A DNA stretch of 7,663 nucleotides from IMG/VR virus record IMGVR_UViG_2778261534_000005; one strand, given 5' to 3'. Within the stretch, counting starts at the first letter, position 1; each line of letters opens with the position of its first letter. This stretch comes from a virus (Duplodnaviria > Heunggongvirae > Uroviricota > Caudoviricetes). The translations under genes and the position numbers were made by a program. Positions 1 through 7,663 of the stretch are shown here, piece after piece. The notes under the pieces were generated by a model. That model was not told the origin of the DNA. It ran no database searches and worked only from the letters and a program-made list of their open reading frames with translations.

Positions 1-30
1 CAAGCCATAGGGAGGTGTAGAGAAACCGTT

Positions 31-72
31 AAGGTGTCTGTACAGTTACATCTTAAACAACCATCACAGTGA
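31..72. repeat. Copy A of a degenerate dispersed repeat (aaggtg ... agttacatcttaa ... acagtga)
   Basis: The 13-mer agttacatcttaa at 44..56 recurs exactly at 319..331. Both copies are preceded by aaggtg (31..36 and 313..318) and followed by acagtga (66..72 and 331..337). Copy A carries short insertions relative to copy B. Confidence 0.55.
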
Positions 73-312
73 TGTCAAATAGTTCTTTTAAGAAGGGAGG
101 GTTCTTTCTCATGTATCACCCTCTCTTCCCGTTAAGTAAGCTACACAGACCTAGAGAACATGCTCTGTAACACCTTCACAAACATTGACTAAGGTCAACT
201 TCATAAACTCAGAGTTAAGTTACCTTGAAAGATTTTACCAAGAAACTACACAGGTGTTATTTAGTCTGACTGTGAAGGGATATTTAACGGGAGAGAAAGT
301 AACGATATACCG

Positions 313-337
313 AAGGTGAGTTACATCTTAACAGTGA
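313..337. repeat. Copy B of the same degenerate dispersed repeat
   Basis: Same motif order as copy A (aaggtg, agttacatcttaa, acagtga). Flanking sequence is also loosely alignable: gttaagtaag occurs at 131..140 and 451..460, and aagaag-gaggg-like runs follow both copies. Confidence 0.55.
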
Positions 338-411
338 CTGTAAGAGATACCTGAAAAGATACTTAACAGAACTACCAAGAAGAGAGGGAACGATAAGACC
401 AGAGGTAGTGA

Positions 412-424
412 CCTGTTAAACAGG
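412..424. repeat. 13-bp palindrome CCTGTT-A-AACAGG
   Basis: 6-bp arms are exact reverse complements around a single central base, inside the repeat-rich noncoding block. Confidence 0.5.
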
Positions 425-845
425 CTGTTTCAAAGTCTCTTAAGAAATCTGTTAAGTAAGGGCTATGTGACCAATATTACCATTTTGTCAATGCTTTTGT
501 CTTTGACCTAAATCAATAAAATGTATCGTTTGATATGCTTTTAAACAAAATGGCTAAAAAATCTTTTTAGAGGGGCGCTTCGCTTGTGTCACCAATATAT
601 TCTTCCCTGTCTAAGAGGGAAGTTACAGGGACATTTCAAAGCCCTCAATAGACAAACCGAGGAACACGGGAAACCGAGGGAAGAAAAATCTATTGTGATT
701 GCCTTGAACAAGGTCTGTAAAGGTCGTTTAAGGGGTCGGTTAAGAAAGGAGCTTCCCTCTCTGGGGTTATCGCTCTTCTCTCGCTTAGTGGATTGATTAG
801 GGGTTGTGTTATACAAGCCCAACTAAGAAGACCTCTGAAGTTTCC

Positions 846-1035
846 CTGTGAAGAAGCTGAACAGCTATTATATATGGCTAATTACAACTAATTGAAAAAT
901 AAGCATTTTTAGAAGTTACTGTTAAGGTTACAGAGTTGTCTGTGAAGAGACTTGTCAGTTCTCTATATATGGCTAATTACAACTTATTGAAAAATAAGAA
1001 CTTTTAGAAGTTACTGTCAGAGAGGTGAATACTTG
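846..1035. repeat. Imperfect tandem duplication of a ~94-bp unit (846..939 and 940..~1035) with a near-identical 54-bp core
   Basis: Both units start with ctgtgaaga. The cores at 869..922 and 964..1017 (tatatatggctaattacaac-N-attgaaaaataag...ttttagaagttactgt) differ at only about 3 positions; the flanks are more diverged. Confidence 0.8.
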
Positions 1036-1098
1036 ATAGATACAGCTTTCCGGTTCTGTCAAGCTATTTTTTCATAGATAGCACAAAATGCTAAAGAT

Positions 1099-1128
1099 AC
1101 CCCTATACCATCACGTACAGGGGGTTTT
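1099..1128 (-). terminator. Putative hairpin terminator for the leftward small-protein transcript, possibly bidirectional
   Basis: Stem 1100..1108 pairs with 1115..1123 (9 bp; one G-U wobble in the minus-strand RNA, which is an A-C mismatch on plus), loop 1109..1114. It sits 14 nt downstream of the minus-strand stop at 1138..1140 and is followed on the minus strand by a U-rich but interrupted tail; on the plus strand TTTT (1125..1128) follows. Confidence 0.35.
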
Positions 1129-1440: not shown

Positions 1441-1470
1441 ATTATACCATAAATGTTAATAAATTGTTAA
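1441..1470 (-). promoter_or_regulatory. Leftward sigma70-type promoter with an extended -10 (TGnTATAAT)
   Basis: The minus strand reads TTAACA (plus 1470..1465), an 18-nt spacer, then TGGTATAAT (plus 1449..1441). The -10 hexamer is a perfect TATAAT with the TG extension. Confidence 0.5.
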
Positions 1471-1477
1471 AAAATAC

Positions 1478-1506
1478 TTGACATTAGTCTTTGAAACTGC
1501 TAGTAT
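1478..1506 (+). promoter_or_regulatory. Rightward sigma70-type promoter for the operon starting at 1559
   Basis: TTGACA at 1478..1483, 17-nt spacer, TAGTAT at 1501..1506, with an AT-rich tract upstream. It lies back-to-back with the leftward promoter; the two -35 elements are about 8 bp apart. Confidence 0.5.
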
Positions 1507-1558: not shown

Positions 1559-2113
1559 ATGAGAGACGCAGAATTTAGAGCGATGCTTCAGGCATCAAAA
1601 GAACGCAACAGACACAACGGTTACAGCTACACAAACAACCCCACCAGCTACGAAGTCCCAGCCTTTACCAAATCCGAACGTAAAAACATTGAAGCGGTCA
1701 TTCGTAGCATTACGCCACGAGACAGATTTATGCCAACTAGAAAGAGCACCCAGAACAGCATCAAAAATTATCTGGCTAGTTTTGACAGCTACGAGCAACT
1801 ACCAAGCAAGCTTGATGATATTTTCATTGGATTCTGTAGAGGTGAAGGTCACCCAAAATACAACAGAAAGCTATTTTATATTCTAAAGAATCTTGACGAA
1901 ATTAACACATGCAGCGTGACAAATCATCTTCAAAGACAATCAACCAGACTTAGCTACGAATTACCAACCGATGCCTATTGTGCATTGCTTGCTGTAATGT
2001 GTGCAAAGCTAATTGGTGTTGTTGAGCATCATGTTGCCGTTGGAAATATTGAGCCAATGGAAAACGAGCAACCAGATTTCGAGTTTGACCCGTATATTTT
2101 GGAGGAATTTTAA
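1559..2113 (+). CDS. Hypothetical protein, 184 aa, basic N-terminus and acidic C-terminus
   Basis: Long ORF directly downstream of the promoter; AAGAGGG ribosome-binding site at 1542..1548. First gene of a tightly packed chain. No family recognised by eye. Confidence 0.7.
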   Translation: MRDAEFRAMLQASKERNRHNGYSYTNNPTSYEVPAFTKSERKNIEAVIRSITPRDRFMPTRKSTQNSIKNYLASFDSYEQLPSKLDDIFIGFCRGEGHPKYNRKLFYILKNLDEINTCSVTNHLQRQSTRLSYELPTDAYCALLAVMCAKLIGVVEHHVAVGNIEPMENEQPDFEFDPYILEEF

Positions 2114-2116
2114 ATA

Positions 2117-2395
2117 ATGAATAAACACACATTAACCCGTATTTCAGAGGAAGCTTTTAACGAGCTTACCAGAATTAAACGAGCTACTAACTTGCCTCAT
2201 CAAACTGTTATGCAACTTGCAATCGCTAAAGAAGTCACTGAGTCGGATTTACTTAAATATCCAGTCTCTAAAGGTCGTAAACACATCCGAATTACTACGG
2301 ACGCTTTAGATACTTTGAAGGCACTTAACAGCTTTAAAATTGATATTGCCCGACTATTGAGCATCAAGATTCACAAATTATCTCAGGAGGTCTGA
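2117..2395 (+). CDS. Hypothetical small protein, 92 aa; possible ribbon-helix-helix-like DNA-binding protein
   Basis: GGAGG at 2101..2105; starts 3 nt after the upstream stop. The N-terminus (TLTRISEEAFNELTRIKRATNLPHQTVMQLAIAKEV) has a strand-helix-helix pattern reminiscent of CopG/Arc-type folds. The fold assignment is inference only. Confidence 0.65.
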   Translation: MNKHTLTRISEEAFNELTRIKRATNLPHQTVMQLAIAKEVTESDLLKYPVSKGRKHIRITTDALDTLKALNSFKIDIARLLSIKIHKLSQEV

Positions 2396-2397
2396 TT

Positions 2398-2670
2398 ATG
2401 AAGCAATGGCGAGATGATATTAAACGGTTCTTTGCAACTTACTTCATGATTAATTACGAAACAGGAATGCTTGAATGGATTGATGGCGGAGAGGTTAAGA
2501 CAAGAGATGATGCTTACGGTAATCCAATGATTCGTTATGGCACTCGTGATTATTATGTGAAGTATGTCATCTGGTTTTTGCATCATGAAGTTCAGGCAAC
2601 TAAAAAGATTATCTTCAGGGATGGTAATAAAAGAAATTGCCACCCAAACAATTTGCTACAGGAGGTTTAA
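2398..2670 (+). CDS. HNH_3-like (homing-endonuclease-related) small protein, 90 aa; canonical catalytic His not evident
   Basis: AGGAGG at 2385..2390 with 7-nt spacing; starts 2 nt after the upstream stop. The C-terminal IIFRDGNKRNCHPNNL (nt 2608..2655) matches the DGNK-N...NL core of HNH_3-type endonucleases, but Phe-Arg sits where His-Ile is usual. Confidence 0.7.
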   Translation: MKQWRDDIKRFFATYFMINYETGMLEWIDGGEVKTRDDAYGNPMIRYGTRDYYVKYVIWFLHHEVQATKKIIFRDGNKRNCHPNNLLQEV

Positions 2671-3056
2671 TGTATGACTTTTATAAACATCGTGACCATT
2701 TGGTAAGATTTGACGGTAAAGTCTGGAAAGACGTAACACAAACCAATAAGCCCAAGTTTACCCACCAGCAATTAGCCTCAAGATTTGATATCTGGACTGA
2801 AGCACAAAAAGATAATGGTGATTTCGAGTTTATCAGGGGTTTTGATTATGCTTACGAAGACGACCTTAAAGACGCCATTAAATTAATTGAGAATTTCAAC
2901 TCTATTAAAAGTGGTGACAAGCACAAAGCCAATGGTAACAGATACGATAAAGATTTAATCATTGATGCAATCACCAAAGGACAATCACAAAGTTATATTT
3001 CTGAGAAATACGGTTTATCACGCAGTCAATACTACAAGATTAAAGCGTCTGTGTAA
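2670..3056 (+). CDS. Putative DNA-binding protein, 128 aa, with a C-terminal recombinase/invertase-type helix-turn-helix
   Basis: The ATG at 2670 overlaps the upstream TAA (TAATG); GGAGG at 2661..2665. The ORF track starts this frame at a TTG at 2637, but the ATG with its Shine-Dalgarno is the more likely start. The C-terminal SQSYISEKYGLSRSQYYKIK resembles HTH_7/Hin-type helix-turn-helix motifs. Confidence 0.7.
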   Translation: MYDFYKHRDHLVRFDGKVWKDVTQTNKPKFTHQQLASRFDIWTEAQKDNGDFEFIRGFDYAYEDDLKDAIKLIENFNSIKSGDKHKANGNRYDKDLIIDAITKGQSQSYISEKYGLSRSQYYKIKASV

Positions 3057-3068
3057 GCCTGTGAGAAT

Positions 3069-3115
3069 GAGTGAGACTCAAAGATGAGCTACCCTATTAC
3101 TAAGGTGTCTCACTC
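3069..3115. promoter_or_regulatory. Perfect 9-bp inverted repeat GAGTGAGAC-N29-GTCTCACTC in an intergenic region
   Basis: Arms at 3069..3077 and 3107..3115 are exact reverse complements. A second small hairpin follows (gtaacc/ggttac, 3121..3137). No T-tract follows, so it is not a classical intrinsic terminator. Confidence 0.45.
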
Positions 3116-3193
3116 CCTCTGTAACCCGCATGGTTACTGGCCTCAGAATGGCTATTTTGGCAGATTTAAGATGTGTTTTAGAGGAATTTAAAA

Positions 3194-3517
3194 ATGAACA
3201 ATCACCCAATGCAAATTTTCGTTGATAACGACACCGCCATGATGATTCAGGCTTTCAGTGATGTAGGTGTTGGCATTGACTTTGATAAGTTGTTAGAGTT
3301 AATGGCTGCTAATGCAGAAAACATCTCTGACTTTATTCAGTCGGTGGAGTTTAACGAGCCTCGAATGATGCTACCAATTTCAGACAGCAACATGAAAAGA
3401 TTGGTTATCGAGCAAACGAACAAATACAGCGTTAGCCCTGAAAGATATCTCAAGGCAGCTATAGCAATTTTGTACGCTGACAATATTTTGGTGACGGATT
3501 CCGTGAGGGTTCACTAA
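3194..3517 (+). CDS. Hypothetical protein, 107 aa
   Basis: AGAGGA ribosome-binding site at 3179..3184, 9 nt before the ATG. No family recognised. Confidence 0.65.
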   Translation: MNNHPMQIFVDNDTAMMIQAFSDVGVGIDFDKLLELMAANAENISDFIQSVEFNEPRMMLPISDSNMKRLVIEQTNKYSVSPERYLKAAIAILYADNILVTDSVRVH

Positions 3518-3594
3518 TGACGTTAATTGTATTATGGACGCTGTTAGGCTTATTTGTTGGCTGCATTATTAACAATGCGGTAAATAAGAATTGA
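3517..3594 (+). CDS. Small hydrophobic peptide, 25 aa (MTLIVLWTLLGLFVGCIINNAVNKN), possible single-pass membrane peptide
   Basis: Absent from the ORF track (too short). The ATG at 3517 overlaps the upstream TAA (TAATG); GAGGG at 3505..3509 with 7-nt spacing. Hydrophobic core followed by a polar basic tail. Confidence 0.4.
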   Translation: MTLIVLWTLLGLFVGCIINNAVNKN

Positions 3595-3618
3595 TGTTAC
3601 CAATCTGTTAAAAAGCTG

Positions 3619-3647
3619 TTGACAAATAACCTTAAGCATGACATAAT
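3619..3647 (+). promoter_or_regulatory. Sigma70-type promoter (TTGACA-17-CATAAT)
   Basis: Perfect -35 TTGACA at 3619..3624, 17-nt spacer, CATAAT at 3642..3647. Confidence 0.5.
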
Positions 3648-3684: not shown

Positions 3685-3817
3685 CAACAATTCCATCTAC
3701 ATCTAGGGATAGTTATTCTGAAAGGTGCAATGCTTTTCGCTACATGGCCTCTTATATAACCTGAGAGGTCATCTCGAAAAGTCTTTGTTCATTCATTATT
3801 GAATCCTTTACAGCTTT

Positions 3818-3856
3818 GCCCTAACTCATGATTAGGGCGTTTCTTTAAGAGTTTTT
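3818..3856 (+). terminator. Hairpin plus U-rich tail (terminator-like)
   Basis: gccctaa (3818..3824) pairs with ttagggc (3832..3838), 7-nt loop, then gtttctttaagagttttt. Confidence 0.4.
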
Positions 3857-3915: not shown

Positions 3916-3960
3916 AAAGCCCTTCACAGATGAGGATGAACCTATGTTTAGGGCTTTTTT
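3916..3960 (+). terminator. Hairpin with a large loop plus T-tract (terminator-like)
   Basis: aaagccct (3916..3923) pairs with agggcttt (3950..3957) around a 26-nt loop; the T run extends to 3960. Confidence 0.35.
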
Positions 3961-4070
3961 CAGCTTTTAAAAAGCATACTTGGCAAACGCCTTTTAAGCC
4001 TCTTCTAAGTTCGAGGATGTCAGGTGTGCTTTTTAAAAACTGAATATTACTTAGAAGAGGAAATGAAATA

Positions 4071-4781
4071 ATGGCAAATGACATTTATATTAGTGGAAGA
4101 AAAATTGATAGCTTCGGTGACTGGTCGCCACAGACTGAACATCCAGCTATCGCTATTCAGCGCAAAGAGCACGATGAAAGAATTGCACTTGAGCAAGAGT
4201 TAAAGATGACACCAAAGGAAATTACCTTTGTGTCTCCTGAGCCTCAAGAGATGCCTGATGTATGCAAAACTGAATCATTACTTGAGCTTGAGCGTGAATA
4301 TTACCCACTACTGAAAGCACAAAGAATTAAACTTGATATTGCTTACGATGCGGTTAAGAACTTCGAAGAAACCTCGAAACCTTCAGAATATGATATTGCT
4401 TACGAGATTAAGTCAAACCCATTTATCTATTATGAAGGAAACTTTAATGATGGTTTTGGTACAGCGATTGAAGACGTTCCTAAAGTTCTTCAAAGTATCC
4501 CTGAAGGGTTCCGGTTAATTGATGTCAGACAAGCATTAAGGGGTTCTGGTCAATTTATCCTGATGAGTGATAAGACAGATGAAGAGATTCTTCAGTTAGC
4601 TGAAGCTAATTTGACTAAGCATTATTCCGGTAAACTGGATAAGTTAAAGCAAAAGCTTAGAAAAGAACTTGATAGCATGAAAGAACTTGTTAGTGAATAT
4701 GAATCACAGAAGAAGATTGCTATGCAGGCTGATATTGAGCAGTTAGTGAAGATTTCAACGAAGTACGCAAAGGTGCTTTAA
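4071..4781 (+). CDS. Hypothetical acidic protein, 236 aa; possible tail assembly chaperone by position (inference)
   Basis: GAGG at 4057..4060 about 10 nt before the ATG. First gene after the long noncoding region and two genes upstream of the tape measure gene. Rich in Asp/Glu with a helical, charged C-terminus. Confidence 0.7.
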   Translation: MANDIYISGRKIDSFGDWSPQTEHPAIAIQRKEHDERIALEQELKMTPKEITFVSPEPQEMPDVCKTESLLELEREYYPLLKAQRIKLDIAYDAVKNFEETSKPSEYDIAYEIKSNPFIYYEGNFNDGFGTAIEDVPKVLQSIPEGFRLIDVRQALRGSGQFILMSDKTDEEILQLAEANLTKHYSGKLDKLKQKLRKELDSMKELVSEYESQKKIAMQADIEQLVKISTKYAKVL

Positions 4782-4804
4782 CTACGAATTAAAAAGGGGT
4801 GTGA

Positions 4805-5008
4805 ATGATTGATTTAACAGAACGCTATGAACTTATCAAAGCAATTAGCGAACGATTGAAAGAACAACCCAACAAACCAAAACGAATCAAATCATCCACC
4901 TCTAAGCAAAAGAATAGAATCAGAAGAATCGCTAAGTGGTGTCTTGATAAATTACCAAGTGATTGTCAGATTGTCGGTGAAGATGGCAATTATTATCTGA
5001 TTAAGTAA
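4805..5008 (+). CDS. Hypothetical small basic protein, 67 aa
   Basis: AAGGGG ribosome-binding site just upstream of the ATG at 4805. Its frame is closed by TGA at 4802..4804, so it is not a frameshift extension of the upstream gene. Confidence 0.55.
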   Translation: MIDLTERYELIKAISERLKEQPNKPKRIKSSTSKQKNRIRRIAKWCLDKLPSDCQIVGEDGNYYLIK

Positions 5009-5027
5009 AGAATTGGTTGGGTAAATA

Positions 5028-5067
5028 CGGGGAGAGATTAACCTTAATTGGTTGGTCCTCCCCTTTT
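5028..5067 (+). terminator. Strong intrinsic-terminator-like hairpin immediately upstream of the tape measure gene
   Basis: ggggag (5028..5033) pairs with ctcccc (5057..5062), with internal pairing aacc/ggtt around ttaatt, followed by ttttt (5063..5067). It ends 33 nt before the ATG at 5100. Confidence 0.6.
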
Positions 5068-5099
5068 TCGTATATGAACACTTAAGAGGTGAAACATGA

Positions 5100-7277
5100 A
5101 TGAGCAAATTCACAGTTGATAGTTTTATCGTTGAGCTAGGCTTCAGCGAGAACGTTATTAAGGGCTTGCAAAGAGTTGAAAAGGCAGCTTTGCAGTCAGC
5201 ACAAAGAATTGAAAAGAACCTAAATAAAGGTTTCAGGATTAATACAAAGCAGCTTGATAGTAATTTAACGACTTCTTTAGGGCAACTTGAAAGGAAGTTT
5301 AATAAGACCTTTGACAAGATTGAACAGAGAGCAAGAAACACAAAAGTTTTCCGTTTCACAAGTCAGGTTAATGACGCTATTAATCCTCCAAAACAACCAA
5401 GACAGCCACGAATTAGCGGAAACAGAGCAATCACAGCAGCTTATTCAGCGAATATGAGCAAGCTAAAAGGCTTTGACCCTATTTTGCAGAAATACATCAA
5501 ATCTCAGTTTTACGGGCTATCTGCTAAAGCTGGGTCAATGGATAATTCAAAATTCAATGAGAAGCTGGCTCAGTTAAACACTTCAGTCAGAGAAGCAATT
5601 GCTAAAGCCAGAGGTCATACATCCACCAGCATTAACAATACAAGCGACGCATTTAATAATCTTGCAAGCAATGCGATTAAATTATCTGGTGCATTTTACT
5701 CTGTGATGGGTGCTCTTAACGCTTACAAGGCCATTATGAATGCAGGTCTTAAACGAGATTCCGCACAGAGAGCCGCTAAGTTTGTACTTGGTGATAAAGC
5801 ATCTGAAGCTGAAACATTTATCAGGGGACTGGCTGACAAGACAGGTCTTAATATCTCTGAAGGGCTATCAAGCTACGCTAAGTTTGCAGCAGGTGCTCAG
5901 GGTTCTATGTCACAGGAACAGACACAGGAGCTATTTGGTAATGCAACGGCTATGAGTCGCTTAATGGGGCTTTCTAACGACGAGCTAAACGGCATTCTGA
6001 AAGCATTTGAGCAGATGGCGAGCAAGGGCAAGATTCAAGCTGAAGAGCTTCGTGGGCAGTTAGGTGACCGTATGGCTGGTGCATTTAAGCTATTCGCTGA
6101 AGCATTGGGTATGACTGCTACAGAGCTTGATAAAGCGATGAAAGACGGGAAGATTTTAAGTAGTGATACTCTCCCTAAAGTCGCTAAACAGATGGGCTTG
6201 ATGATTGATAAAGCGGGTGGTTGGGCTGAAGTCGCTAAGAGCACTCAGACAGCTTTAGGTAAGTTAGCAAACAACTGGGATGACACGATGGTGAAAATCT
6301 TCTCAGGTTCACAGGATGAGCTAAATGGCTTCTTATCCAGCCTGAGTAACCTGCTTAGTGAAATGGGTATGAGTTCTTCTATCGCTGGTGATGCTATCGG
6401 TGGACTTATCGACATGCTTAAAGCTGGTGTAGATGATATCCGTATCTTTAACAATCACATTGAAGGCTGGATTTTACAGACTAAGAAGTTCTATTACAGC
6501 CTTGATGACACTAAACGAAAACTACTTGATGAAGTCGGTGATGGTTTTATCAATTTTGTCAAAGGTCTTGCTATAGCGTTATCTGCAAAGACGCTATTCA
6601 GTGCTACTACAGGGGTTATGAACCTGACAAGAGCAATCACAACGTTAGGTACAAGAGCTAATCAGGTGGCTGGTCAGGTAGCTACTGGTAAAGGTGGTGG
6701 AAAACTGAAAGGTGTAGCTGGTGGTGTAGGTAGTGCTCTTGCAATTGGTTATGCTGATGACGGTTATGAAACAGCGTTAGCATTAGCTTCAATGATTCCA
6801 CAAATCAGAGGTGTCACTCTTGGTTTATATGCATTGAAGAAAGCACTGGATTTTATGAATCAGGAAGTAGTCAAAAACGCTAATATGCATCCATCTGGGG
6901 TAGGTGTGGGTAGTGACTTTAATCCTGTGTATTCTGGTGACCCTAATAAACCGAATGTGATTAACGAAGGATGGAGTAGAATTTTTAGTTCAATGGGTGA
7001 ATTGTTTAACAATGCCACAATGAATATTGCAAGATTCAATCATCCAGAATTGATTACCATGAAACAAGATGCATCATTAACGAGCACTGACATCCAAAAT
7101 CTAAGAGATGAAATTAGTGCTTTGAGTAAACGTATTCAGGAGCCAGTGAAAGTTTCACTTGGTGGTGAAGTTGCCATTAAACCAGATGAAACCAGCTTTA
7201 TGACCTTTAGCAGTAATATCTACGACCAATATGCAGAAGCTACGTTATTAAGTTCATCATTCCCAGAAGATGATTGA
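5100..7277 (+). CDS. Phage tail tape measure protein, 725 aa
   Basis: AAGAGGTGA ribosome-binding site 8 nt upstream. Residues ~291..366 (nt ~5970..6197; LSNDELNGILKAFEQMASKGKIQAEELRGQLGDRMAGAFKLFAEALGMTATELDKAMKDGKILSSDTLPKVAKQMG) match the conserved tape measure domain pattern. Long Ala/Gly/Leu-rich helical-looking protein with a Gly-rich segment at residues ~526..549. Confidence 0.85.
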   Translation: MSKFTVDSFIVELGFSENVIKGLQRVEKAALQSAQRIEKNLNKGFRINTKQLDSNLTTSLGQLERKFNKTFDKIEQRARNTKVFRFTSQVNDAINPPKQPRQPRISGNRAITAAYSANMSKLKGFDPILQKYIKSQFYGLSAKAGSMDNSKFNEKLAQLNTSVREAIAKARGHTSTSINNTSDAFNNLASNAIKLSGAFYSVMGALNAYKAIMNAGLKRDSAQRAAKFVLGDKASEAETFIRGLADKTGLNISEGLSSYAKFAAGAQGSMSQEQTQELFGNATAMSRLMGLSNDELNGILKAFEQMASKGKIQAEELRGQLGDRMAGAFKLFAEALGMTATELDKAMKDGKILSSDTLPKVAKQMGLMIDKAGGWAEVAKSTQTALGKLANNWDDTMVKIFSGSQDELNGFLSSLSNLLSEMGMSSSIAGDAIGGLIDMLKAGVDDIRIFNNHIEGWILQTKKFYYSLDDTKRKLLDEVGDGFINFVKGLAIALSAKTLFSATTGVMNLTRAITTLGTRANQVAGQVATGKGGGKLKGVAGGVGSALAIGYADDGYETALALASMIPQIRGVTLGLYALKKALDFMNQEVVKNANMHPSGVGVGSDFNPVYSGDPNKPNVINEGWSRIFSSMGELFNNATMNIARFNHPELITMKQDASLTSTDIQNLRDEISALSKRIQEPVKVSLGGEVAIKPDETSFMTFSSNIYDQYAEATLLSSSFPEDD

Positions 7278-7289
7278 TTTAACGGTGTT

Positions 7290-7342
7290 CTACGTGAATA
7301 AAGCAAAGTTAATACCCACACCAAAAATTATTTTTCACGTAG
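7290..7342. promoter_or_regulatory. 9-bp inverted repeat CTACGTGAA-N35-TTCACGTAG downstream of the tape measure gene
   Basis: Arms at 7290..7298 and 7334..7342 are exact reverse complements. No T-tract follows the right arm. Confidence 0.4.
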
Positions 7343-7373
7343 CTCACGCTTAACAGAGAAAATACTTATATAT

Positions 7374-7663
<290 letters not shown>

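Follow-up and report, generated by a model that had tools for sequence, protein, structure and literature searches.

The PLEs of Vibrio cholerae are satellites of the lytic myovirus ICP1 that are integrated by a large serine recombinase (PMC11838301, PMC12987554). They encode their own tail assembly chaperone (TAC) and tape measure protein (TMP), some of them also a baseplate hub, and chimeric tails are built; deletion of the PLE tmp gene lowered transduction by 96-99.9% (PMC11838301, PMC12987554). Rta of PLE11, an orphan protein of 80 amino acids (aa), blocks tail assembly of the helper via the phage TMP, and tmp genes have been reported only in PLE-like elements of Vibrio and in some cf-PICIs (PMC11838301, PMC12987554). 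Here, we describe a locus of Escherichia coli that carries a TMP gene. It was analysed as a stretch of 7,663 nt from a virus record (IMGVR_UViG_2778261534_000005), which is called the window in the following. An earlier note on this DNA had pointed to an unusual gene arrangement upstream of the TMP gene, that is, an acidic protein of 236 aa (p236) followed by a separate basic protein of 67 aa (p67), and the open reading frames (ORFs), isoelectric points and charges bear this out (Table 1). The locus is not a phage but a chromosomal island of E. coli of about 11.3 kb that is integrated by a large serine recombinase. The Vibrio PLEs are the closest precedent, and the island is probably their undescribed E. 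coli analogue.

Among 5426 complete E. coli genomes, 545 have a chromosomal match to the window and 386 contain the p236-p67 segment, with at most three copies per genome. No plasmid matched the window, and a scan of species-representative genomes gave matches in two Escherichia species only. The common gene order begins with a small serine recombinase and 1.5-2 kb in which ORFs are few or lacking (a Dam methylase is found there in some islands). Small genes, one of them for an HNH endonuclease, form the next block, and after a gap of about 550 nt come p236, the small ORF, the TMP gene (TMP_3), a gene for a Dit-like "baseplate protein" (PF21821) and, convergent to it, the large serine recombinase with its Resolvase, Recombinase and Zn_ribbon_recom domains. 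This layout is fixed in all annotated copies compared, apart from an extra small gene between p236 and p67 in some islands, and the host genes on both sides are intact. Integration is seen beside wrbA, inside the DUF72 gene yecE, near msyB/lpxL and near yciI. The only virion genes are those for TMP and the Dit-like protein; capsid, terminase, sheath, tube and chaperone genes were not found in the complete islands compared, and no island examined has a homologue of the phage sheath, tube, TAC, g120 or g121, nor of the downstream baseplate genes. The lack of tube and chaperone genes follows from the nature of the locus, which is a partial tail module, as in the PLE satellites, and not a rearranged complete one. 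The phage tail operon of unusual layout that was implied by the earlier note has therefore to be replaced by a compact integrative island with a partial tail module. The matches in IMG/VR are prophage-type calls from isolate genomes and not virome evidence; prophage callers flag these islands as phage. No specific description of the island came up in literature searches, and the family appears to be undescribed so far.

Excision can be seen in an 11,280-nt contig (L031, Logan SRR22802630), which is a circular permutation of a related island with a terminal overlap of 27 nt and represents a circular or tandem form. The junction in this contig has a 13-nt core, CAATGACCCTTGA, in common with attL and attR of an integrated copy and, in attP, this core is flanked by an inverted repeat (CCGAATAG/CTATTCGG). 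The island is therefore excised precisely, as a circle. Thus, the element has features expected of a phage satellite: it has its own integrase, excises as a circle and carries an incomplete set of virion genes that are related to those of a specific phage group.

This group is the Ounavirinae, the Felix O1-like phages. Judged by its sequence, the 725-aa product is a genuine TMP. The closest phage TMPs are those of Ounavirinae, with 30-35% identity; compared to the TMP of Felixounavirus, the identity is 33% overall and 27-35% across islands. It is not evenly distributed: the first 45 residues of the island TMP are about 76% identical to the phage protein, a central motif (around residues 300-352) is strongly conserved and the C-terminal tip, LLSSS[F/Y]PE, is kept as well. 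We infer that the conserved parts are those that must dock to phage partners. The relation is even closer for the Dit-like gene. Positions 7458-7663 share 97% nucleotide identity with over 200 Felix O1-like phages; for the encoded protein, identity is 97% over phage residues 8-78 (57-97% across islands). In other islands, the N-terminal 510 nt of the gene show 81-93% nucleotide identity and the C-terminal third is divergent. Dit homologues were present in only about 300 of 50,697 phage records, and nearly all of these are named for hosts of Ounavirinae. In a megablast search against the same 50,697 phage genomes, matches were confined to the edges of the TMP region, that is, a short stretch at the TMP start and 7458-7663; upstream of 5091 there was no phage match with megablast or with sensitive blastn. 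On the basis of these sequences, TMP and Dit of the island stem from lytic myoviruses of the Ounavirinae, with which sequence is still exchanged.

Like the PLEs, the island is a small chromosomal element with a large serine recombinase that is associated with a strictly lytic myovirus. It has, as they have, only a partial tail module with a helper-related TMP and a baseplate-proximal protein, but no tube, sheath or fibres, and in both cases small orphan proteins lie beside the tail genes and the gene clusters are mosaic. However, no sequence relationship to the PLEs as described was detected beyond the generic TMP and recombinase families. The PLE TAC is recognisable (HK97-like fold, PDB 5IR0), whereas p236 and p67 lack similarity to TACs; the Dit-like protein is up to 97% identical to that of the phage, as compared to 41% for BhuB of PLE; and the island has 11.3 kb instead of about 18 kb, with no recognised counterparts of capsid scaffold, replication and nuclease genes. 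The host of the island is Escherichia, and its dependence on a helper would follow from the analogy. The cf-PICIs, PICIs and P4-like satellites are also integrative elements found in E. coli and presumably exploit virion parts of a helper, and some cf-PICIs have a putative tmp. In contrast to the island, these elements have tyrosine integrases, genes of the capsid, packaging and primase type and temperate helpers; the island has none of those genes and is related to virulent Ounavirinae. With eight proteins of the window, no tyrosine integrase, capsid, packaging, primase or alpA-type match was found in Pfam or PHROG.

In Felixounavirus garuso, sheath, tube and two chaperone ORFs precede the TMP gene and a 266-aa Dit-like protein follows. 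The chaperone ORFs are g116 (PF21822, Phage_TAC_15, and phrog_1613) and g117 (phrog_4963). They served as positive control for the frameshift test: the frame of g117 is open for 79 nt into g116, with an in-phase T_TTT_TTC, and in the Mijalis record the joined frameshift product is annotated. With this pair, and with gpG/gpGT of lambda, p236 and p67 have in common that two ORFs lie just upstream of TMP, that the first is acidic and that, in the window, the second is in the -1 frame, the latter by chance. However, the two island products do not start with a common N-terminus, an open -1 overlap is lacking and there is no slippery site that could be used. As claimed before, the p67 frame is closed by a TGA (4802-4804) directly before its ATG and no long -1 frame runs over p236, where the -1 frame has no open run of 25 codons or more between 4071 and 4781. 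A check of 4071-5100 in all frames for heptamers of the type X_XXY_YYZ gave nothing usable; the sole in-phase heptamer, A_AAC_CCA at 4415, would lead to a TGA four codons after a -1 slip. Relative to p236, p67 is in the -1 frame in the window and in island L004 and in frame 0 in islands L002, L003, L005 and L007. The frame relation varies between islands, and therefore there is no conserved recoding. Furthermore, the first ORF has 236 instead of about 130 aa, a terminator lies before TMP, the predicted fold is different and there is no sequence or profile similarity: in hhalign, the profiles of p236 and p67 reached a probability of 0.1-0.2% with the G and T parts of the Ounavirinae TAC. A TAC pair of the G/GT type was thus rejected as identity of p236-p67, based on the missing -1 frame, the missing match to a TAC family and hhalign probabilities below 1%.

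Closed frames and negative profile comparisons with the phage TAC together confirm that a frameshifted chaperone pair of the G/GT type is not present. Neither p236 nor p67 is similar to a tail tube or to any known chaperone. Novel accessory proteins, one of the options offered by the earlier note, is still the best description. The anomaly is real, and it is explained by a partial, borrowed tail module on a mobile island.

p236 and p67 are real genes. The N-termini and the Shine-Dalgarno (SD) sequences of both are conserved in homologues, and pairwise dN/dS values of about 0.35 (p236) and about 0.1 (p67) show purifying selection at the sequence level. Both genes stand directly upstream of TMP in the same order in all related islands, and in the window 23 nt lie between the stop codon of p236 and the ATG of p67.

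Neither p236 nor p67 has a family match in Pfam, PHROG, NCBIfam (E<=1) or PADLOC; a match of one family member to a PHROG TAC family (E 0.2) is at chance level. No phage homologue of p236 or p67 was found by tblastn in the 50,697 phage genomes. The p236 profile gave only three unrelated matches among PDB chain sequences (E<=10), in a library expected to hold 5IR0, although its presence was not confirmed. At 90% identity, the p236 family comprises about 3,100 clusters, nearly all from E. coli. A phmmer search of 1.84 billion representative proteins gave 19 clusters at 50% identity, all of the island family, and re-searching with a profile added no further homologues. Of the five full-length distant homologues, four are in complete islands and one is on a contig that ends before the TMP gene; wherever the contig was long enough, distant homologues (24-53% identity) are found in the same island architecture. 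The 58 clusters of p67 are all from E. coli. By these sequence searches, p236 and p67 are shown to be restricted to the island family, with synteny conserved down to about 25% identity.

The AlphaFold model of p236 (pLDDT 79) has a disordered N-terminus and two long antiparallel helices (68-101 and 170-226) that form a coiled-coil hairpin, which carries an alpha/beta tip domain of 60 residues (106-166) with the invariant motifs NDGFG and PEGxR. The protein is mostly helical and, with its 236 aa, larger than the gpG-type chaperones (about 100-150 aa). In fold searches, all matches were to generic coiled-coil hairpins (RipA, prefoldin, Skp, SMC hinges) or to proteins that combine a hairpin with a tip, for example the type III secretion needle-tip protein IpaD; none was significant. 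In E. coli, the central part of p236 exists in two allelic blocks of about 45% identity, whereas the ends are conserved. p67 starts with a helix, which is followed by a linker that is rich in Lys/Arg and differs in length and sequence between homologues, and by a small, poorly predicted C-terminal module; the model was too weak for a fold search. Altogether, the searches revealed no link of p236 or p67 to chaperones, tail tube or transposases.

Most members of the p236 family are named "transposase" in RefSeq/PGAP, and this database name is all that speaks for such a function. No transposase model of NCBIfam or Pfam matched at E<=1, and the predicted coiled-coil hairpin with its tip is neither a DDE/RNase H nor an HUH or recombinase fold. 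The gene is always single-copy, has a fixed place in the island and has no terminal inverted repeats of its own. A transposase is contradicted by these findings and was rejected; we see practically no chance for it. On the basis of sequence and model, the label is probably a propagated misannotation.

In the earlier note, the operon seemed to begin two genes upstream of TMP. A predicted sigma-70 promoter in front of p236 is in line with this start, but a terminator between p67 and TMP makes a simple operon that runs on into TMP less likely. The promoter region (3594-3647) is the best-conserved non-coding stretch, 94-97% identical between most of the otherwise mosaic islands, and this holds even for an island whose p236 is only 24% identical. 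It contains phased TGTTA/TGTTG repeats with a period of about 11 nt (3594-3624), and a related upstream motif precedes the early promoter at 1478 (1453-1483), which suggests, as far as sequence goes, a binding site for a common regulator. The short stem-loop at the transcript start is also found at this position in other versions of the island, with different sequences. Downstream of p67, 11 of 11 islands examined have, at one and the same position, a hairpin with a covarying stem that is followed by T5-6. p236 and p67 may thus be transcribed as a unit of their own, separately from TMP-Dit at least in part.

The most conspicuous element of the leader is the long hairpin just upstream of p236. 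Over 10 sequences, pairing in its 23-pair stem amounts to 98.6%, and both bases have changed in 13 pairs; none of 500 shuffles reached this pairing, and slid controls gave 35-52%. G.U pairs in the stem argue that the structure is formed on the plus-strand RNA. The apical stretch CCTCTTCTAAGT is perfectly complementary over 12 nt to the SD region ACTTAGAAGAGG of p236, which was equalled by none of 3000 shuffles. The complementarity between loop and SD is kept, although the sequences differ, in three other versions of the island (TCTAAGTG/CACTTAGA, TTCACCTCT/AGAGGTGAA and TTTCCTATT/AATAGGAAA). The leader is thus a putative loop-SD pseudoknot, or a processing site of the RNase III type, that would gate translation of p236. 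No Rfam family was found in the window. The loop (4000-4013) also has a perfect 14-nt antisense match to garuso, 14-27 nt upstream of the phage TMP start (7984-7997), and a same-sense copy of the loop sequence is found in garuso at 10185-10196, about 25 nt upstream of the Dit gene. This may be an RNA link in trans or a coincidence of shared SD-like sequences.

Of the two hairpin modules between TMP and Dit, the one at 7279-7353 (CTACGTGAA...TTCACGTAGCTCACGCTTAA) is located before Dit in the window and before TMP in many other islands (L002, about 19923-19995; equivalents in L005, L008-L010 and L012). Its motif was found in island copies only and was absent from 16.8 kb of garuso and from all other viral contigs.

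Table 1 Features of the window with position, strand and basis of the assignment
Feature	Position	Strand	Remarks
Divergent promoter pair	1441..1506		1470-1441(-) matches 11/12; 1478-1506(+) matches 10/12; promoter scan
Plus-strand promoter of the pair	1478-1506	+	predicted to feed the early operon of the island
Early operon	1559..3517	+	p184, p92, 90-aa HNH endonuclease, p139, p107; ORF list
Promoter and putative operator of the p236-p67 unit	3594..3647	+	three phased TGTTR repeats; promoter scan
Predicted promoter therein	3619-3647		-35 TTGACA 3619-3624, 17 nt, extended -10 TGaCATAAT ending at 3647; 11/12 plus TG
Short 5' stem-loop	3657..3673	+	at predicted transcript start; followed by a U9 run in the window
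Terminator-like hairpin in leader	3817..3839	+	dG -12, z -2.7
Long leader hairpin	3959..4044	+	arms 3959-3985 and 4018-4044; dG -33.8, z -4.9
Anti-Shine-Dalgarno stretch	3999-4010		CCTCTTCTAAGT; apical region of the leader hairpin
Shine-Dalgarno region of p236	4049..4060	+	ACTTAGAAGAGG; complementary to the hairpin apex
p236	4071..4781	+	236 aa, pI 5.0, net charge -10; stop TAA 4779-4781
p67	4805..5008	+	67 aa, pI 9.7, net charge +6.5; ATG at 4805
Intrinsic-terminator-like GC hairpin and U5	5029..5068	+	between p67 and TMP; dG -23.7
TMP	5100..7277	+	725 aa; PF20155 7e-21, phrog_4036 4e-96, TIGR02675
Two hairpin modules	7279-7353 and 7365-7424	+	between TMP and Dit
Dit-like baseplate gene, 5' part	7435..7663	+	cut by the window end; PF21821 Dit_like in full-length island copies

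How can these findings be brought together? We favour, at somewhat better than even probability, that p236 and p67 head a tail-manipulation module, consisting of p236, p67, TMP and the Dit-like protein, of a satellite-like island that is associated with Ounavirinae. By analogy to the PLEs, the island would be a satellite of these phages, or a defence element derived from a satellite, and would insert its own TMP and Dit into the tail assembly line of the helper, giving chimeric tails. p236 and p67 would then be the island's own, non-homologous accessory factors for the tail step. The acidic coiled-coil hairpin with its tip is loosely reminiscent of a holdase, and a first guess is that p236 stands in as chaperone and holds the island TMP in a state competent for assembly; alternatively, it could discriminate the island TMP from that of the phage. 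p67, small and basic, could be an adaptor, an inhibitor or an RNA-binding regulator. The leader pseudoknot would hold off translation of p236 until the RNA is remodelled or processed.

Several points weigh against this explanation. The satellite character is deduced from the genes, and induction, replication, packaging and transfer by a phage are assigned to the island by analogy; a replication initiator, a packaging signal or a capsid-remodelling gene was not recognised in it. With its phage-like N-terminus, the island TMP could use the chaperone of the helper. The two findings that fit a classical chaperone role least are the terminator and the free reassortment of alleles. The conserved terminator between p67 and TMP is unlike the situation in phage TAC-TMP units and weakens the idea of a single, co-transcribed chaperone-TMP unit. 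For each of p184, p92, HNH, p139, p107, p236, p67, TMP and Dit there is more than one allele, with identities that go down to about 40-60%, and the several alleles are freely reassorted from island to island. In a search for partners by allele coupling, p236 and p67 were accordingly not coupled to TMP or Dit, although coupling is expected of a tightly matched chaperone and its client.

The same diversity fits, at the level of sequence, frequent recombination and an arms race, and it leads to the alternative that the island is purely an anti-phage defence element without transfer of its own. TMP and Dit would then be dominant-negative decoys against tails of Ounavirinae, and p236, p67 or both would be active inhibitors such as Rta, Tai or Tab. 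The high allelic diversity and the mosaicism of the module genes are as in arms-race loci, the N-domain of Dit and the ends of TMP fit the phage while the remainder is divergent, and no packaging or replication genes were recognised. Rta of PLE11 and Tai/Tab are small orphan proteins of mobile elements that act on tail assembly (PMC12987554, PMC11364771, PMC10884400); p67, also a small orphan, is near the size of Rta (67 versus 80 aa), and the likeness is by description only. However, the large serine recombinase is intact, excision is precise and several integration sites are used, all of which is the behaviour of a self-mobile element, and PADLOC gave no match. Since defence and transfer coexist in the PLEs, both explanations overlap. 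A pure defence element is a possibility to be taken seriously, but we regard it as rather unlikely.

A different role for p236-p67 is offered by the leader of lambda N, which has nutL and a stem that is processed by RNase III and controls translation of N. If p236-p67 were a regulatory unit like lambda pL-nutL-N-tL1, one of its products, for example p67 acting on the hairpin modules, would override the terminator for TMP/Dit. Common to both are a strong promoter, a long perfect stem just upstream of the first SD and a terminator after a short gene block. In the island, the near-consensus promoter is conserved, the covarying stem of 23-27 bp with its anti-SD lies just upstream of the SD, the conserved terminator directly follows p67, hairpin modules recur before TMP and/or Dit, and p67 has a basic, Lys/Arg-rich disordered segment. 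On the other hand, there is no sequence homology to the lambda leader and it is the apical loop itself that is complementary to the SD in the island; no homology to N, Q or other antiterminators was identified, and neither the sequence nor the length of the basic segment of p67 is constant. An acidic coiled-coil protein of 236 aa would be left unexplained, and all the evidence is by analogy. We consider such a unit unlikely. Even less can be said for p236 as an external or capsid-size-redirecting scaffold, like Sid of P4 or TcaP of PLE, in the late block of the TMP. Its long helical coiled-coil architecture would be compatible with this, as would the size of the island (11.25 kb), which is about 1/8 of the helper genome (about 86 kb), but the probability is very low. 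Finally, the locus could be an ordinary tail operon of a phage or prophage, or its decaying remnant, with chaperones diverged beyond recognition. The pair does lie directly upstream of TMP, and p236 is acidic like chaperones of the gpG type. However, the same 11-kb architecture, bounded by recombinase and host genes, is found at several sites with 24-95% protein identity, and sheath, tube, capsid and terminase are never in the island. Purifying selection, excision, a frame relation that is not conserved and negative tests for TAC homology likewise contradict an ordinary operon or remnant, which we hold to be hardly credible.

The part of the island upstream of p236 contains further features. 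In window positions 1-1100 no ORF of 80 aa or more is found over about 1.1 kb, yet this region is 74-88% conserved between islands. It contains two direct repeats of 54 nt (869-922 and 964-1017) that are 94% identical and 95 nt apart, and may serve as an origin or as a packaging site or else encode a non-coding RNA. On the minus strand, two small ORFs (1442-1320, 40 aa, and 1326-1138, 62 aa, hydrophobic and membrane-like) end at a terminator-like hairpin (1123-1100); in other islands, a comparable small gene is annotated on the minus strand. The genes of the early operon have the same order in all related islands. Family matches are HNH_3 (7.6e-5), HTH_28 (3e-3; a C-terminal HTH in p139) and a weak DndE/RHH-like match of p92. 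The HNH endonuclease (HNH_3, 90 aa; 2398-2670) is 98-100% identical in four of the compared islands, whereas its neighbours differ by 10-35%; it could function in homing, in packaging or in attacking the genome of the helper. At the left end of the island, the small recombinase is an exchangeable cassette, and both orientations occur. An invertible segment at this place was rejected, because the orientations represent different cassettes and not an inversion.

In its furthest-reaching form, our explanation would make these widespread 11-kb islands the first E. coli counterpart of the PLEs: satellites of virulent Felix O1-like myoviruses that place their own TMP/Dit in the helper tail, with p236 and p67, proteins of new fold, replacing the chaperone pair, and with an anti-SD loop that pairs with the leader of the helper TMP mRNA (the perfect match of 14 nt) and so couples translation of p236 to late transcription of the helper. 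Taken as a whole, this is speculative and its chances are limited. The island family is nevertheless of considerable interest. There are immediate practical corrections, since about 3,000 protein clusters bear an unsupported "transposase" name and the islands are miscalled as phage by prophage callers. For satellites of strictly lytic phages, there is essentially a single known system, PLE/ICP1 of V. cholerae, and the idea that a satellite rebuilds the tail of its helper with its own TMP is very recent (Nature 2026). If our explanation is true, an unrelated island family that is present in about 7-10% of complete E. coli genomes would bring biology of the PLE type into a tractable model, and two new proteins would replace or sabotage the near-universal G/GT chaperone mechanism. 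Felix O1-like phages are widely used in typing, biocontrol and therapy, and the islands could then explain strain-level resistance to Felixounavirus or its poor yields.

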